From an uncultured Candidatus Saccharibacteria bacterium (lineage in GTDB: Bacteria > Patescibacteriota > Minisyncoccia > Minisyncoccales > CAZKCU01): a stretch of 64,000 nt of DNA. The position numbers and the translations under genes are program-made. Of the stretch, positions 22,076 through 60,472 are shown in pieces. How positions within the stretch are numbered: position 1 is the stretch's first letter; every line of letters starts with the position of its first letter. The notes under the pieces were generated by a model, which worked only from the letters and a program-made list of their open reading frames with translations, had not been told where the DNA came from and did no database searches. The stretch spans positions 14,013 to 78,012 of the forward strand of contig CAYSLI010000002.1 in the NCBI GenBank assembly GCA_964431915.1, given 5' to 3'.

Positions 22076-22378
22076 CGCGCCGTGGAGGAGTAGTACCTTG
22101 CGAGGCCCATAAAATCTTGTGGCCCAGAATGGCAACATTCTGTGGAAAATTCCCGAAATTGCTGGGAACCCCCGTAAGATAGCGAGCTTGTGAGCTCTAT
22201 CTCATGGGGCAATCAGCAGCCAAGCCGAGCACATAAAGTGTTATGTGCTTGGAAGGTTCAGAGGCTATAATGGGAACTTCCTTTTTAAAGAAGGAAGATG
22301 GTATAGTCCATTCCATTTGGAAACAAATGGTTAATATTAAAGAACCTCGAGACGTCCGTGCAATTCGGACCGGCGCAA
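22076..22378 (+). tRNA. initiator tRNA-fMet(CAU), split by a group I intron (exons 22076-22110 and 22343-22378)
   Basis: Joined exons form a cloverleaf: CGCGCCG/CGGCGCA acceptor with C1xA72, A11:U24, stem CGAGG/CCTCG, loop CCCAUAA, T arm GTCCG-TGCAATT-CGGAC, A73. Confidence 0.8.
22111..22342 (+). ncRNA. group I intron (IC3-like core, no ORF) in the anticodon loop after CAU
   Basis: P1 CCAU/GUGG with U.G at the 5' splice site; P/Q/R/S-like AAATTGCTGGGAA, AATCAGCAGCC, GTTCAGAGGCTATAA, AAGATGGTATAGTCC; P2-P9 helices all pair; terminal G22342. Confidence 0.8.
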
Positions 22379-22386
22379 CTAGATTA

Positions 22387-22458
22387 GCCGGTGTAGCTTA
22401 ATGGTTAAAGTGGGGCTCTCATAAGGCTTAGATGAAGGTTCGATTCCTTCCATCGGCA
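22387..22458 (+). tRNA. tRNA with CAU anticodon (elongator Met or Ile2), wobble-rich anticodon stem
   Basis: GCCGGTG/CATCGGC acceptor, D loop AATGGTTA, loop CTCATAA, T arm GAAGG-TTCGATT-CCTTC; anticodon stem has 3 G.U pairs. Confidence 0.7.
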
Positions 22459-22469
22459 CTCAAATTTTT

Positions 22470-47701: not shown

Positions 47702-48391
47702 ATGAAAGATTTTTCTTTATTTGAGAAAAAATTAAATCTAAAATTTAAAAATAAAGATTTACTCATTCAGGCTTTTTGTCACCGTTCTTATTTGAACGAA
47801 AATCCTGATTTTTATTTATCAAATAATGAAAGGTTAGAGTTCTTGGGCGACGCGGTTTTGGAATTAATTATCACTGAATATCTTTATCAAACTTATCCTA
47901 AAAAATCAGAAGGGGAGTTGACCAATTGGCGGGCGGCTCTAGTAAATGCTAAAATGTTATCCAGAATTGCCAAGAATCTTGATTTTAATGATTTTCTTTT
48001 ACTTTCCCGGGGGGAATTGAAAGAAATTGGCAAAGCTCGCCAATATATTTTAGCAGATACTTTTGAAGCAGTTATTGGAGCAATTTATCTTGATTTAGGG
48101 TACAAGGTCTGCCAGAACTTTATAAAAAAATATTTGATAAAAGAGCTGCCCCATATTATTAAGGCTCGGCTTTTTAAGGATGCCAAATCTCAATTTCAGG
48201 AAGAAGCCCAGGAGAGGGTGGAGACTACTCCGACTTATAAAGTTTTAAAAGAGTGGGGACCAGATCATGTCAAGCACTTTATCGTTGGAGTTTTTCTTGA
48301 TAAAACATTGGTGGCTGAAGGCGAAGGTTCTTCAAAACAGGAAGGAGAAGAAAAGGCAGCCAAAAATGCCCTAGAAATTAAACACTGGTAA
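47702..48391 (+). CDS. rnc: ribonuclease III
   Basis: NERLEFLGDAVLEL, dsRBD at the C-terminus (GSSKQEGEEKAA). Confidence 0.92.
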   Translation: MKDFSLFEKKLNLKFKNKDLLIQAFCHRSYLNENPDFYLSNNERLEFLGDAVLELIITEYLYQTYPKKSEGELTNWRAALVNAKMLSRIAKNLDFNDFLLLSRGELKEIGKARQYILADTFEAVIGAIYLDLGYKVCQNFIKKYLIKELPHIIKARLFKDAKSQFQEEAQERVETTPTYKVLKEWGPDHVKHFIVGVFLDKTLVAEGEGSSKQEGEEKAAKNALEIKHW

Positions 48392-48885: not shown

Positions 48886-49077
48886 ATTATACCTACAACA
48901 CTCTTGACAAAAATTTAAGATGAGATAAAATATTAAAATAGTAGCTTTTTCAGTCTCGCCGATTCTCCCCTTAAAGAAAGAGAGTTAGGTGAGGAGCAAA
49001 GGTCGGGCTACTTGAATGAACTAAGCGATTGAATGCAGTCTCCAAATACGAATAGCGATTTTGGGGAGTTTAAGAAT

Positions 49078-49404
49078 ATGCCAAAAGCAACTTCTGATCA
49101 GGAATTCCTTGAGTATATTATTAAGGGTTTAGTTGATCACCCAGAGGATGTTAAGATTGATAGAAAAGTTGATGAGATGGGAGTTTTACTTTCTTTAAAA
49201 GTAAATCCCGAAGACATGGGTCAGATTATTGGAAGAGCCGGGTCAACTGCCAGAGCAATAAGGTCTTTGGTTCGGATTATTGGTCTAAAAAATCACGCCA
49301 GAGTGAACCTAAAGATTGAAGAACCAGCTGGTGGTAGACCTCCTGTTACTCGAGGGAAAAGAGCTCCTGCCGAAGGAGAAGAGCTCGAAGAGCTAAAGTT
49401 GTAA
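49078..49404 (+). CDS. KH-domain RNA-binding protein (YlqC-like)
   Basis: LVDHPEDVKI, GQIIGRAGSTARAIRSL; GGGGAG RBS upstream of ATG 49078. Confidence 0.8.
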   Translation: MPKATSDQEFLEYIIKGLVDHPEDVKIDRKVDEMGVLLSLKVNPEDMGQIIGRAGSTARAIRSLVRIIGLKNHARVNLKIEEPAGGRPPVTRGKRAPAEGEELEELKL

Positions 49405-56891: not shown

Positions 56892-57081
56892 AAAGAGGTT
56901 GGTGATTCGCCATAAGATTGGTTTTTGTGTATCGGTAATACTCCTTCGCGGTAAGAATTACCAACCTCTTTAACATATACTTAAATATCCGCAGACAGCA
57001 GGCAATTTATGTAAGTCCTGCCGAGGATAAAATACATAGGTTCTAGCTATGTAATCTGTCTGCGGTAAAACGCAGATTTTT
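56892..57081 (+). promoter_or_regulatory. rplJ (L10) leader with long helices and a terminator/antiterminator arrangement
   Basis: AAAGAGGTTGGT/ACCAACCTCTTT (56892/56960); CCGCAGACAG/CTGTCTGCGG (56989/57056) competing with TCTGCG-GTAAAA-CGCAGA-TTTTT (57059-57081). Confidence 0.55.
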
Positions 57082-57091
57082 AATTAAAGAA

Positions 57092-57604
57092 ATGGCCTTA
57101 ACTAAAACTCAAAAACAAAAAATCCTTGAAGATTTGAAAGAAAAAATCGCTAGGCAAAAAGCAATTATTTTTGTTAATTTCTCAGGTTTAAAGGTAAAAG
57201 ACCTTTTCGACCTAAGAAAAAGATTGAAGAATGTAAACAGCGAATTAAAAGTAAGTAAAAAAACCTTATTAGCTTTGGTTTTTAAGGAAAAGAAGCTAAA
57301 AATTGATATAGAAGAATTAAAAGGAGAGATTGCCTTGATTTTTGGATTTCAAAACGAGACATCTCCAGCAAAAACAGCTTATCAGTTTTCCCAGGAAAAT
57401 AAGAATTTAAAAATTTTGGGCGGGTTTTCTGAGAATAAATTCGTTGAGCCAGAAAAGATTATTGAATTAGCAAAATTGCCAACGAGAGAAGAACTTTTGG
57501 CAAGATTAATTTCGAGCGTTTCAGCTCCAGTTTCAAATTTTATCAATGTTTTAGAAGGAAACATTAAAGGTCTGATTTACATTTTATCTAAAGCTAAAAT
57601 GTAA
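57092..57604 (+). CDS. rplJ: 50S ribosomal protein L10
   Basis: FVNFSGLKVKDLFDLRKRL, position upstream of rplL. Confidence 0.92.
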   Translation: MALTKTQKQKILEDLKEKIARQKAIIFVNFSGLKVKDLFDLRKRLKNVNSELKVSKKTLLALVFKEKKLKIDIEELKGEIALIFGFQNETSPAKTAYQFSQENKNLKILGGFSENKFVEPEKIIELAKLPTREELLARLISSVSAPVSNFINVLEGNIKGLIYILSKAKM

Positions 57605-57634
57605 AATTACTAATTTTTCACTTTGTTCAAAATT

Positions 57635-58252
57635 ATGGCAGAAGAACAAAAAGAAGAAAAAACAAAAGAAGAGCAGGAAGCAGAAAAGAAAGAGCCTGCT
57701 ACTCCTGCTACAAATCCTCCAAAAGAAGAGCCAAAGAAAGTACAAGAAGAAGTCAAGGATGAGCCAAAAGAAGAAAAAAAAGAAGAACCTAAAGAAGAGA
57801 AAAAGGAAGAACTGAAAGAAAAACCTAAAGAGGAGAAGAAAAAAGAGCCCGTTAAGGTTCCAGAAAAGTTTAAGAAATTGATAGCAGAAATTGAAAAAAT
57901 GACTGTTTTAGATTTGGCAGAATTGGTGAAAATTTTGGAAAAGAAGTTTGGAGTTTCAGCCGCTACTCCTGTAGCTGTTGCGGCTGCTTCGGCAGCTGGT
58001 GCTCCGGGTGCTGCTCCAGAAGCCGAAGAAAAAAGTGTTTTTAATATTGAACTGAAAGAAGTAGGTGAAAAAAAGATTGAAGTAATTAAGGCAGTCAGAG
58101 ATATTACCCAGAAGGGCTTAAAAGAATCCAAAGATTTGGTAGATGCAGTAGCTACTGGTTCCCAGGTGATTAAAGAAAATGTTAAAAAAGAAGAAGCTGA
58201 AGAGATGAAAAAGAAACTTGAAACAGCCGGAGCAAAAGTAGAGTTAAAGTAG
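57635..58252 (+). CDS. rplL: 50S ribosomal protein L7/L12 with ~80-aa K/E/P-rich N-terminal extension
   Basis: [26 protein letters not shown], Ala-rich hinge, [24 protein letters not shown]...AGAKVELK. Confidence 0.88.
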
Positions 58253-58323
58253 GTAGGACAGAGGTAGGACATTAAGACTTGACAAGGTCATTTGGGTTTG
58301 CTAAATTCAAAGTAGAAGATTTA

Positions 58324-58400
58324 TAACCACCGTGGAGGGCGAATTAAGGAATTTTTACTTCTAAATCAGATTGAGGAGTGATTTTAAGCGGTGGTTTTTT
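58324..58400 (+). terminator. long hairpin with U-tract downstream of rplL
   Basis: AACCACCG...(56 nt)...CGGTGGTT followed by T7. Confidence 0.4.
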
Positions 58401-58433
58401 TGGTGGCTGTGAAGAACTTGTGGAGAACTTAAA

Positions 58434-58468
58434 CTTGACTTTTCTTTTAATATTAGGTATTATAATAC
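58434..58468 (+). promoter_or_regulatory. sigma70-like promoter with a 14-bp perfect palindrome over the -10
   Basis: TTGACT-17 nt-TATTAT; GGTATTATAATACC at 58455-58468. Confidence 0.45.
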
Positions 58469-58609
58469 CATCCATTTTAAAGCTAAATTTATAATTTGTG
58501 CTTCAAAAATTTTATAGCGAAAATTTAATTGAGAGCTTCTGGAAAGAAAGTTTGTATTGTTTTTGCGGAGTATAAACTTCGCCTTTTTATTTATTAGAAA
58601 AGCGAGGTT

Positions 58610-58732
58610 TGGACTCCACAATAAAAAAAATAACGGAGGGTTCTAGTGGGGAGTTGAGCTTCCTCTAAAAAGAGGGAGTGAAAGCTCCCTTAATGGGGAG
58701 CTGAGCTCCCGATGGAATTTTTTGTGGAGACC
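58610..58732 (+). promoter_or_regulatory. structured GC-rich leader: three tandem GGGAG/CTCCC hairpins closed by a long-range stem
   Basis: GGACTCCACAAA (58610) pairs with TTTGTGGAGACC (58721), 11/12; hairpins at 58649-63, 58673-90, 58696-710; neighbouring arms also pair with each other. Confidence 0.45.
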
Positions 58733-58776
58733 TACAAAGGTCGAAAGAAAATAATTAACTAATTAACAAAAGAATT

Positions 58777-59862
58777 ATGAACAAAAAAATATTAATTAGT
58801 TTGAGCGTAATTGGTGCTGTTGCTGCAATTGCCATTGGTGGAACCGTTGCTTATTTCTCAGACACTGAAACCAGTGCTGGCAATACTTTCAGTACCGGGG
58901 TTATTGACATTAATATTAATCGCAAAAATCCTTGGACAGGAAGTTGGCATATTGAAGATATGAAACCCTGCGAGACTGGATATATAACTTTTGATATCAG
59001 GAACCCGGGAGACAACCCGGTTAATGTTTGGAAGACGATTAAAAACATTGAAACTAATGATGGAGTTATAACGGAGCCGGAATGTGTGTACGGAGGAGGA
59101 AAGTGGGATTCTACCAACCAAGAATGTGATGTAAAAGGAGGTGAAGGAGAAGGAGCTTGGGAATATAATGAGCGATCTTGGCTCCCACCTCACATAAATT
59201 ATGACCTGTCAGTTTTGGTCAATGTTAAAGACAACCCAAAGGGTTGGTACCAGACTATCTACAAAGACGAGGACAATGTTAGAATTTCAGATATTAGTGG
59301 CCAAAGTATTTTCCTGGGTATGATTCCGGCACGTAGAAAAATGACAGTAACCCAGAGTTATCACTTAGTTCCTGAAACAAAAAACTGGGCACAGGCTGAC
59401 ACAATGACGTTTGATATTGAGATTTATGCTGAGCAACTTACCGGTTCCCTTGTTTTGGAAAACAAAACAGGAGATCCTGATTGGCAGATTATAGGAAACG
59501 ACAAACCCAAAGCTACTTTAACTTACAATCTTACTGGTCCAACTTTTGACTATAATTTGACTGGAAAAGTACGCCTGAAGGATACTGAGTACTGTTTAAT
59601 CTACTATGCCGACCCATGGGCAGGAGATAAGCCTGGTGCTTTGATTGGTTGCGGAACAAGTGTTAGTAGAAAGATCAGCTTTAGCGGTAGCGTTGAACTC
59701 GGAATGGATCTTCCAAACTCACTTGACCAGAATTACCCAGAAGGTGCCAAGATTTGGTTAGTTACGGCTAGCGACTACGATACTAATAAGATGACTGCTT
59801 GGAATCCTGACGATTATCTGTTTGAGACTGGGTTGATTACTTACGAAGACACAAATAATTAG
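58777..59862 (+). CDS. TasA/camelysin-like secreted protein with SipW-type signal peptide
   Basis: N-terminus ...IGGTVAYFSDTETSAGNTFSTGVIDI; extra C-terminal domain. Confidence 0.72.
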   Translation: MNKKILISLSVIGAVAAIAIGGTVAYFSDTETSAGNTFSTGVIDININRKNPWTGSWHIEDMKPCETGYITFDIRNPGDNPVNVWKTIKNIETNDGVITEPECVYGGGKWDSTNQECDVKGGEGEGAWEYNERSWLPPHINYDLSVLVNVKDNPKGWYQTIYKDEDNVRISDISGQSIFLGMIPARRKMTVTQSYHLVPETKNWAQADTMTFDIEIYAEQLTGSLVLENKTGDPDWQIIGNDKPKATLTYNLTGPTFDYNLTGKVRLKDTEYCLIYYADPWAGDKPGALIGCGTSVSRKISFSGSVELGMDLPNSLDQNYPEGAKIWLVTASDYDTNKMTAWNPDDYLFETGLITYEDTNN

Positions 59863-59938
59863 TTCTTGAAACTTTTTCGGTTGCCTCAAGGCTTCCTTGT
59901 GGCTGATTTGGGGCAACTTGTAAAGGATTTGAGAAACA

Positions 59939-60472
59939 ATGAAATCATTTAAGATAATTTATTATATTTTTATTGCCTTAATTGCAGTGATTGCGATTTT
60001 GCTGATTGTTTCGGTTTTTCCGATTACCGGAAATTATAAATTATTTATTGTTCAATCAGGTTCAATGGCACCGGCAATTAAAATGGGAAGTATTGTGATG
60101 GTAAAGCCGGTGAATGATTATAAAATTGGTGATGTCGTTTCTTTTGGCGAAGTGACTAAAATTAAGTCGCCGACTACTCATAGAATCAACGATATTAAAG
60201 TATCTGGCGGCGAACCTTATTATATTACTAAAGGCGACGCTAACAATGCTCCCGACCAGAGAGAGATTACAAAGAGAGAAGTTATTGGTAGGGTATTGTT
60301 TTCTGTTCCTTATATGGGTTATGCAGTAGATTTTGCCAAAAAGCCGGTTGGGTTTATGCTGTTAATTCTTGTGCCGGCGACTGTGATTATTTATGACGAA
60401 ATAAAAAAGATTTTTGGAGAAATCAAAAAAAGGAAGGAGAATAAAAGCACAAAATTAGAAGATAATGCATAA
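59939..60472 (+). CDS. sipW: signal peptidase I, SipW/archaeal-ER type
   Basis: N-terminal TM, SGSMAPAIKMGSIVMV, TTHRI, KGDANNAPD, C-terminal TM. Confidence 0.82.
   Translation: MKSFKIIYYIFIALIAVIAILLIVSVFPITGNYKLFIVQSGSMAPAIKMGSIVMVKPVNDYKIGDVVSFGEVTKIKSPTTHRINDIKVSGGEPYYITKGDANNAPDQREITKREVIGRVLFSVPYMGYAVDFAKKPVGFMLLILVPATVIIYDEIKKIFGEIKKRKENKSTKLEDNA

Follow-up and report, generated by a model that had tools for sequence, protein, structure and literature searches.

What is the role of a tandem array of GGGAG/CTCCC units that stands before a TasA-like operon in an uncultured Candidatus Saccharibacteria bacterium? The array lies in a 64,000-nt stretch of DNA (GCA_964431915.1, contig CAYSLI010000002.1, positions 14,013-78,012 of the forward strand), referred to here as the window, within a 524-nt spacer between rplJ-rplL (57092-58252) and the operon. 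An earlier description made from the letters of the DNA (the sequence-only reading) had seen in it three tandem hairpins bracketed by a long-range stem, and our analysis supports its proposal that the leader of the TasA-like/SipW operon holds a non-coding RNA structure formed by the sense strand. Fold modelling and comparison with relatives indicate that the array is a real and strongly conserved RNA structure, most likely folding as one long hairpin. We tentatively favour a reading in which it would form the lineage-specific apical part of a cis-acting leader RNA of ~300 nt, most probably an attenuator of the operon.

All three units are present where they had been placed (GGGAG-TTGAG-CTTCC at 58649-63, AGGGAG-TGAAAG-CTCCCT at 58673-90 and GGGAG-CTGAG-CTCCC at 58696-710), and the local peak in G+C content was also borne out (0.48-0.50 in the array against 0.20-0.35 in its flanks); the distance from 58732 to the ATG at 58777 is 44 nt. 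The pattern GGGAG-N4-7-CTCCC matches twice in the 64 kb, both times within the array, against 0.13 matches expected. The sense strand of 58632-58726 folds to -50.8 kcal/mol (z = -7.1), a value attained by 0/200 shuffled sequences, and the whole 326-nt leader gives z = -7.5, with z = -6.3 in another fold test. Because 11 of the 37 sense-strand pairs are G.U, the antisense strand reaches just -26.2 kcal/mol (z = -3.4), and this strand gap of 24.6 kcal/mol argues for an RNA made from the gene's strand over a DNA palindrome.

In the predicted nested fold the arms of the first unit (H1) pair with those of the third (H3), 58649-55 with 58704-10 and 58657-64 with 58695-702, around a cap at 58672-91, so that the middle unit (H2) alone stays local; the U6 tract that follows pairs by G.U with GGAGGG at 58635-40 in the full fold. 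A row of three hairpins is not what the model favours: in the ensemble local H1 has a probability of 2e-5 and local H3 one of 0.002, and an outer stem carrying three hairpins reaches -40.0 kcal/mol against a minimum free energy (MFE) of -57.8, ~18 kcal/mol worse. The mutually exclusive shifted helices of the sequence-only reading, by contrast, proved to be real competitors. Enclosed by H1a:H3b, the pairings 58659-65:58672-78 and 58683-89:58696-702 give -66.9 against -68.5 kcal/mol, a gap of 1.6 kcal/mol from the MFE, and the nascent transcript at 58692 has the shifted helix as its MFE structure. These helices keep H1a:H3b, and adding ACUCC:GGAGU to them costs ~11 kcal/mol (-57.1). Leader segments upstream (GCGGAGU, ACUCCAC) and downstream (GUGGAGA) share the GGAG/CUCC complementarity, and several mutually exclusive pairings are therefore available.

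Searches with TasA-like, RplL and SipW-like proteins gathered ~75 related loci, designated here by L numbers, and the array is present in four distinct loci: the window, L060/L061, L075 and L076. Recurrence of the motif before related operons, raised by the sequence-only reading, thus holds for four lineage-mate loci but not for 75 other related loci, among them ~20 distinct TasA-like leaders; over the window and 79 loci (367 kb) a covariance model of the array matched its training sequences alone. In a relative found through RplL (96% identical) the TasA locus is absent after rplL, but another part of that contig carries the array. When the window is compared with L060, identity is 97% in the array, 95.5% in the promoter region (58405-58470), 72% in the leader at 58471-58553 and 91% in the segment before the start codon (58733-58776), while third codon positions are 72% identical in rplL, 81.5% in the SipW-like gene and 68.5% in the tasA-like gene. 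Set against ~72% at such neutral-like sites, the 97% of the array argues that it is under strong purifying selection. The four loci differ by T58644C (predicted U.G to C-G), T58679C (the closing U.G of H2 to C-G), A58682G (loop GAAA to GAGA, GNRA either way) and indels limited to A-runs, in the internal loop and the 5' A-tract. Every change fits the nested fold, and 100% of cells pair in 4/4 sequences. A check by covariation did not bear out the helices: among these four close sequences 55/58 pairs are invariant, three vary on one side and none shows a compensatory double change, so covariation neither proves nor refutes them. The frozen loops and spacers suggest sequence-specific constraints, either several partners per arm or a bound factor.

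The long-range bracket fared less well than the shifted helices. Complementarity exists (10/11 pairs, or 15 nt at 87% with the A/T runs), but not the 11/12 pairs or the terminal AAA that had been noted, the 5' arm being GGACTCCACAAT. In the whole leader the bracket is not favoured, since the long upstream hairpin T uses the same GGACUCCAC segment; the 3' arm of T, GGUUUGGACUCCAC (58605-58617), includes the 5' arm of the bracket, whose probability is ~0 where that of T is > 0.99, and a fold forced to contain the bracket is 8.4 kcal/mol worse. The shared arm has two alternative partners that are direct repeats of each other, TTTTTGCGGAG at 58560 and TTTTTGTGGAG at 58719, and the arrangement is therefore three-part and switch-like rather than a simple enclosure. 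Inside T lies a smaller hairpin, t1, the MFE structure of the nascent transcript up to 58592, which is kept in L060, L075 and L076 (with the loop AUAA changed to GUAA in L075) and which, with its U-run, appears terminator-like in itself.

Comparison with relatives places these elements in a wider scheme. Sigma-70-like promoters can be read in the relatives' sequences 150-350 nt 5' of the ATG, so long leaders are the rule for this TasA-like gene family, and ~20 other TasA-like leaders hold different structured modules around a common AAAGGYCG box. Thirteen related leaders have a homologue of T in which the 3' arm GCUUGGGCUCC is conserved, with duplex z values between -1.0 and -6.6. These hairpins contain G.U pairs, and changes of the type CUCC/GGAG to CUCUU/AAGAG are matched in the downstream partner, a GGAG(CC) segment able to pair with the same T 3' arm being common to related leaders. 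In L001, L007, L015 and L065 a U-rich loop of ~10 nt separates the partners and a T-run directly follows the T homologue at the same leader position, such that T plus U-run resembles a canonical terminator; in L008, L011, L021, L022 and L062 a conserved three-way-junction domain, GGGCCGUG...UAGGGUCC, takes the place of the array. The scaffold is therefore conserved, and the array is an insertion into it that is specific to one lineage. After the box, many relatives carry a further element of 85-124 nt, module B (AGUGGCUUACC...GGCRAGCCACU), whose 19-pair closing helix shows conserved single-base mismatches and wobble-type variation only and which has competing GGAGGAC copies inside.

We lean towards attenuation because a stable hairpin, with an A-tract before it, is followed by U6, because several relatives have terminator-like hairpins at an equivalent place and because interchange of the repeated arms allows alternative folds of nearly equal energy. 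The G+C-rich stem-loop 58637-58717 has a predicted energy of -41.5 kcal/mol, with cores GGGAGUU/AGCUCCC and AGCUUCCU/GGGGAGCU; U6 (58718-23) abuts A58717, and other terminators in the window share the form of a hairpin followed by TTTTTTG. The promoter candidate at 58435..58463 would yield a leader of ~300 nt from its predicted transcription start site (TSS), and a consensus scan found no better promoter-like site between it and the ATG. According to this model the array acts on the sense-strand transcript, where hairpin and U6 would serve, 53 nt ahead of the AUG, as a factor-independent terminator or a pause site. If the arms re-paired, the helix beside the U-tract would be lost and RNA polymerase could read into the operon; the candidate re-pairings are of free ACUCC with 58650-54, of 58659-65 with 58672-78 and of 58683-89 with 58696-702, and the candidate trigger is a factor recognising the AAAGGYCG box or hairpin T. 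If each arm has to suit several partners, this would account for bases being frozen whether they are paired or not.

Several observations weigh against this model. The helix beside the U-tract is weak, its last five pairs (UUCUA/UGGAA) comprising one G-C, one G.U and three A-U, and a simple terminator scan, the format of which is unable to represent so long a stem, left the array unflagged. The TSS is placed by consensus match alone. The four closely related sequences offer no compensatory covariation, and their high conservation may also reflect a sequence-specific protein site. In L011, L021, L022, L062 and L066, which carry other inserts, no U-run follows hairpin T, so attenuation is not universal in the family. 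Furthermore, we identified no sensor, ligand or binding protein for the leader.

Other roles at the level of the RNA have to be weighed against attenuation. The sequence-only reading had remarked that the start codon lacks a Shine-Dalgarno (SD) sequence and that the purine and pyrimidine arms are SD-like and anti-SD-like. The former is true but not special, SD-less starts being the rule in this genome: an SD core (GGAG, GAGG or AGGA at -20 to -4) precedes 4/64 likely window genes against 7.3 expected by chance, and the 20 nt before these 64 starts are 75% A+T. A published survey describes a subgroup of Parcubacteria without the anti-SD motif in 16S rRNA (PMC9297842), with which the starts of the window genes are consistent. 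Since SD-less starts are the norm, the label given to the arms is unsupported. It is accordingly hard to see how translation from the SD-less start could be controlled by purine arms that serve the ribosome as decoy or standby binding sites and pyrimidine arms that mimic an anti-SD, and we hold this highly improbable. STAB-SD elements are known in Bacillus and GGAGG-like motifs do recur in the relatives' leaders (for example CTAGAGGAGGAACTAGA and the GGAGGAC of module B), but, besides the lack of SD use and of the anti-SD in that subgroup, all arms lie inside helices (P > 0.9) and the start region (58744-58790) is unpaired in every computed state, MFE and constrained fold alike. The same open start region and absent SD use speak against an SD-sequestering operator or an RNA thermometer, and the box AAAGGUCG was rejected as an alternative SD, lying 37-208 nt from start codons with just three occurrences in the window. 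An mRNA stabiliser or RNase III processing helix, which would protect the 5' part of an abundant structural-protein mRNA or set its mature 5' end without any switching, is unlikely but has more in its favour. Long structured 5' untranslated regions (UTRs) stabilise S-layer, ompA and aprE mRNAs, the ~36 stacked pairs provide enough length for RNase III, relatives have other long helices at the same place (the 19 pairs of module B; hairpin T), and a start region that is always unpaired makes control of initiation not obvious. An RNase III gene (PF14622, PF00636, dsrm), adjoining nusB, rpmF and rpsP, lies in the window at 47702-48391, and is relevant because the leaders hold helices of 20-37 pairs. 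Such a helix predicts compensatory drift and free loops, yet at ~28% neutral divergence loops and stems are near-invariant, and the A-tract, the U6 flanks and the interchangeable repeated arms are left unexplained. We consider it distinctly unlikely that the array instead terminates a separate non-coding RNA of ~255 nt (T plus array), made from the 58435 promoter and ending at U6, with the operon served by its own weak promoter in 58727-58760 (GAGACC-17-AATAAT by eye). The hairpin and U6 have the right geometry, SD-less genomes often have short leaders, and L075 keeps promoter, T and array at 92% identity despite replaced sequence 3' of 58730. However, there is no promoter-like site of at least 9/12 matches from 58726 to the ATG, the match at 58763-58790 ending past the ATG; L066 and L011 have more structured modules between the equivalent point and the ATG, and the downstream AAAGGYCG box and module B are RNA-like and conserved.

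Other explanations lie at the level of the DNA. Binding of a dimeric transcription factor to three GGGAG-N5/6-CTCCC palindromes, blocking or activating transcription, would fit the perfect 7-1-7 palindrome at 58696-58710, which exceeds what an RNA hairpin needs, and the conservation of the sequence itself rather than of structure alone; the B. subtilis tapA-sipW-tasA operon is under the control of DNA-binding proteins. It is nevertheless very improbable here. H1 is imperfect as DNA (GGGAG/CTTCC) and pairs as RNA through G.U, T58644C falls outside any palindrome and is predicted to turn a U.G into a C-G, and the strand asymmetry noted above also stands against it. Moreover, the centre-to-centre spacings of 25.5 and 21.5 bp are out of helical phase, the site would lie at +165 to +240 from the sole good promoter, and the operon holds no regulator gene. 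Hardly credible is an invertible or mobile insertion, in which inverted repeats at 58611-25 and 58718-32 would flank a 92-bp element devoid of RNA function. A 15-nt inverted repeat at 87% identity is present, relatives have a ~10-nt loop here, making the array an insertion relative to them, and the downstream gene is a hypervariable cassette; but the flanking repeat is homologous to the relatives' CUCC...GGAG stem, which encloses ~10 nt and could not invert, and the 97% conservation argues for function. The orientation is the same in 4/4 loci, and neither a promoter-like site inside nor a recombinase gene nearby was found. In viral contigs GGGGAGYTGAGCTYCC was matched 29 times, singly and scattered and never as an array, a number at chance level by an estimate made without a control. 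Nor does the array resemble a CRISPR mini-array, with just two 20-nt copies that are 85% identical and 47 nt apart and no cas-like genes in its neighbourhood. An attC/integron site was rejected as the R'/R'' consensus boxes are absent (by eye), and a leader peptide because in L060 a 1-nt indel shifts the frame of the 16-codon open reading frame (ORF) MEFFVETYKGRKKIIN (58712-58762).

The AAAGGYCG box may reach beyond the TasA-like operons. In the related loci it occurs 32 times in the sense and 6 times in the antisense direction, and it stands 37-208 nt before the ATG in no fewer than 16 independent leaders of TasA-like genes; loci with the AAAGGTCG box are L001, L007, L010-L012, L015, L021, L022, L052, L058-L070 and L076. 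In L076 the box reads AAAGGCCG in each of the two TasA-like leaders (at 437 and 1684); a base-pairing partner with G opposite that position would fit this, as would a protein that tolerates the change. We rejected AAAGGTCG as a -10 element of a promoter or a TSS element, no consistent -35/-10 standing at a fixed spacing across the leaders, and a literature search on the AAAGGUCG box gave unrelated matches only. The box is also present in the window in the leader (48904-49032) of a khpA-like gene (49033-49404), which encodes a KH-domain RNA-binding protein (PF13083) between rpsP and trmD. This leader has the best promoter match in its region (TTGACA-16-TAAAAT, 11/12) and holds GGAGC-AAAGGTCGG enclosed by AGTAGC/GGCTACT, with a fold z of only -1.1; box and context are as in the relatives' TasA-like leaders, for example AGAGCAAAGGTCGACC in L065. 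The shared context (GGAGC-AAAGGUCGG in an outer stem), together with the AAAGGCCG of L076, would point to a regulon with a trans-acting reader. It is conceivable, though a long shot, that the array is a plug-in module of an undescribed, modular leader-RNA family in SD-less Patescibacteria, with a scaffold of T, the CUCC/GGAG stem and a single-stranded AAAGGYCG box, forming a regulon read by a KhpA/KhpB-like protein or a base-pairing RNA, and with GGAG/CUCC arms that would act as a register-shifting domino from the 5' hairpin to the U-tract ~100 nt downstream. The family of AAAGGYCG-box leaders, with its echo at khpA, is a more interesting lead than the array.

Further modules of the relatives' leaders are of note. 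The three-way-junction-like layout, GGGCCGUG-[hairpin]-GCGA/CGAAAG-[hairpin]-UAGGGUCC (for example L011 850-920), is rich in G.U pairs, with loops of the GNRA/UNCG type and arms that are interchangeable, and matches no Rfam family. Module B, likewise without an Rfam match, is found in L001 (2880-2967), L007 (148-236), L010, L052 (1599-1683), L058, L064, L065, L066 and L070. L058 and L059, with an identical TasA-like protein, differ by a 29-nt deletion (~1499-1530) that drops the AU-rich spacer, such that module B abuts the ATG in L058. Two more hairpins, CTAGAGGAGGAACTAGA with GGAGG in its loop and CACCCCGTTAAAT...ATTTAACGGGGTAAAAA, recur in L001, L010, L066 and L070, near the leader 5' end, and in L011, L021 and L052. 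The features of the window's own leader and operon are collected below.

Table 1. Elements of the TasA-like/SipW operon and its leader, in window coordinates.
Feature	Position	Strand	Details
Sigma-70-like promoter candidate, TTGACT-17-TATTAT	58435..58463	+	10/12 consensus matches
Long upstream hairpin T	58554..58630	+	-27.0 kcal/mol; pair probabilities > 0.9
Small terminator-like hairpin t1 inside T, GCGGAGU-AUAA-ACUUCGC then CUUUUUAUUU	58565..58592	+	-7.8 kcal/mol
Bracket stem, 5' arm GGACUCCACAA	58611..58621	+	Pairs upstream (T) or downstream (58722-58732)
A-tract before the long hairpin	58620..58632	+	Length differs among relatives
Array, one irregular hairpin	58633..58725	+	By folding; 37 pairs (11 G.U), A-rich internal loop 58665-58671
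Apical hairpin H2, GAGGGAGU-GAAA-GCUCCCUU	58672..58691	+	GNRA tetraloop; P = 0.95
U6 tract	58718..58723	+	Directly 3' of hairpin 58641-58717; invariant in 4/4 loci
Bracket stem, 3' arm UUGUGGAGACC	58722..58732	+	Near-repeat of 58560-58570 and 58418-58429
AAAGGUCG box	58736..58743	+	Partly masked by predicted hairpin GACCU/AGGUC (58729-58742, P > 0.9)
AU-rich stretch to ATG 58777	58744..58776	+	Predicted unpaired; without SD
TasA/camelysin-like protein, operon gene 1	58777-59862		PF12389
SipW-like signal peptidase, operon gene 2	59939-60472		
Large TasA-N/LTD/LamG protein, then FN3-like protein, operon genes 3 and 4			

Whereas the leader is conserved, the TasA-like gene behind it acts as a hypervariable cassette, its protein being 72% identical between the window and L060 where the array is 97% identical; L076 has two TasA-like genes (478-2989). 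In L075 homology to the window ends at 58730 (L075 1899-2918 vs window 58712-59862), marking a putative recombination or deletion breakpoint, and the called ORF begins at an ATG inside the array (MEFFVEKDIKPC...) and is without a signal peptide; deletion, recombination or a chimeric assembly may account for this. A hairpin, GGTTGCCTC...GGGGCAAC, lies at 59870-59920, after the tasA-like and before the sipW-like gene; its L076 homologue is followed by TTTT, and it could possibly be a partial terminator that sets the TasA:SipW ratio.

The window belongs to an AT-rich (65% A+T) bacterium with a small genome, of the Patescibacteria/Candidate Phyla Radiation (CPR) type, with the closest RplL and TasA-like proteins named from Pacebacteria, Parcubacteria and Saccharibacteria metagenome-assembled genomes. 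An Rfam L10 leader (56971-57091) precedes rplJ-rplL, and a scan of the intergenic region for tRNA and tmRNA found none. Directly after rplL there is a small, separate transcription unit (58279-58404), with a promoter-like TTGACA-17-TAAATT, ~85 nt that include GGAGGG and GAGGAG, and a terminator-like end (CCACCG...CGGTGG then T7). It is 94% identical in L060, and a longer variant adjoins TasA-like loci away from rplL (L062, L075, L076); it has no Rfam match and is a candidate small RNA (sRNA) linked to the TasA locus. Pairing with this sRNA-like transcript was considered and set aside, as by eye there are only 6-nt complementarities. Just 5' of the -35 of the unit, tandem direct repeats (AGGTAGGACA twice, 11-bp spacing, 58251-58271) look like a response-regulator-type binding site, and repeats resembling them, (G)TAGGACA, stand before the corresponding promoter in L001, L060, L062, L073 and L075. 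At 58407-58429, 5 nt 5' of the -35 TTGACT of the leader promoter, CTGTGAAGAACT and TTGTGGAGAACT are overlapping copies with starts 11 bp apart, and a third copy, TTGTGGAGACCT (58722-58733), forms the 3' arm of the bracket stem; these could be a shared protein site or chance, ~0.3 matches being expected by a rough estimate. Elsewhere in the window a group I intron (Rfam RF00028, 22100-22330, 84 bits) seems to split a CAU-anticodon tRNA (~22077-22377), with putative exon halves, read by eye, of GCGCCGUGG...CCCAUAA and ...CCGGCGCA and no ARAGORN call; a separate, intact tRNA-Met lies 3' of the intron (22387-22459).

Almost nothing is known of gene regulation in Patescibacteria/CPR, which are not growable alone. 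The lineage seems to initiate translation without SD pairing, and its TasA-like fibres probably serve at the cell surface or in attachment. A leader RNA that is conserved and has several states, together with the AAAGGYCG-box family, would provide a testable handle on the control of a major surface structure and would supply candidate RNA families to catalogues. The general importance of the array is modest because it is confined to a narrow lineage.

How does the array compare with known systems? In agreement with the sequence-only reading, Rfam 15 at the gathering threshold gave no hit in 58253-58776. At E values up to 10 the best matches over the array were drum (18.4 bits against a threshold of 43) and Clostridiales-2 (14.5 against 58.6), and weak miRNA-precursor-like matches fell on hairpin T, because T is a long hairpin; gathering and permissive thresholds on 20 and 6 related loci yielded nothing relevant. 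A riboswitch class is not indicated, the array occurring in four near-identical loci only, with no double-sided changes, while other lineages have different modules. Like the Firmicutes biofilm-operon RNAs (EAR of eps; the cyclic di-GMP riboswitches before pilus or adhesin genes), it would act in cis as an RNA within or ahead of an operon for matrix or fibres, but it differs in that no Rfam model was matched even at E = 10, and no likeness to them in sequence or architecture came out positive. Stabiliser or RNase III-processed leaders are found on abundant secreted or structural genes, namely ompA, aprE and the S-layer slpA, together with the STAB-SD of cryIIIA. As in these, the leader is long and structured, precedes an operon for a secreted structural protein and has SD-like purine motifs well away from the start codon, and an RNase III is encoded in the window; in contrast, SD is not used, the purine motifs are paired, and loops and spacers are more conserved than a stabiliser would require. 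In common with the transcription-attenuation leaders of the trp, pyr and T-box types, it has a stable hairpin and U-tract between candidate promoter and start codon and segments with mutually exclusive pairings, whose sequence is probably frozen by multiple partners. It differs from them in having no leader peptide, recognisable tRNA- or ligand-binding domain or Rfam match, in the weak helix by the U-tract and in its chained GGAG/CUCC arms, as opposed to a simple 1-2-3-4 scheme. The related Patescibacteria leaders have hairpin T, a CUCC...GGAG stem, the AAAGGUCG box and an AU-rich stretch before the start codon in common with the window, whereas the GGGAG/CUCCC array belongs to the window lineage only and replaces the ~10-nt loop or the three-way-junction domain. 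The array is thus an undescribed leader RNA of a familiar general kind, a structured 5' UTR or attenuator, that stands outside known families and belongs to a narrow lineage.

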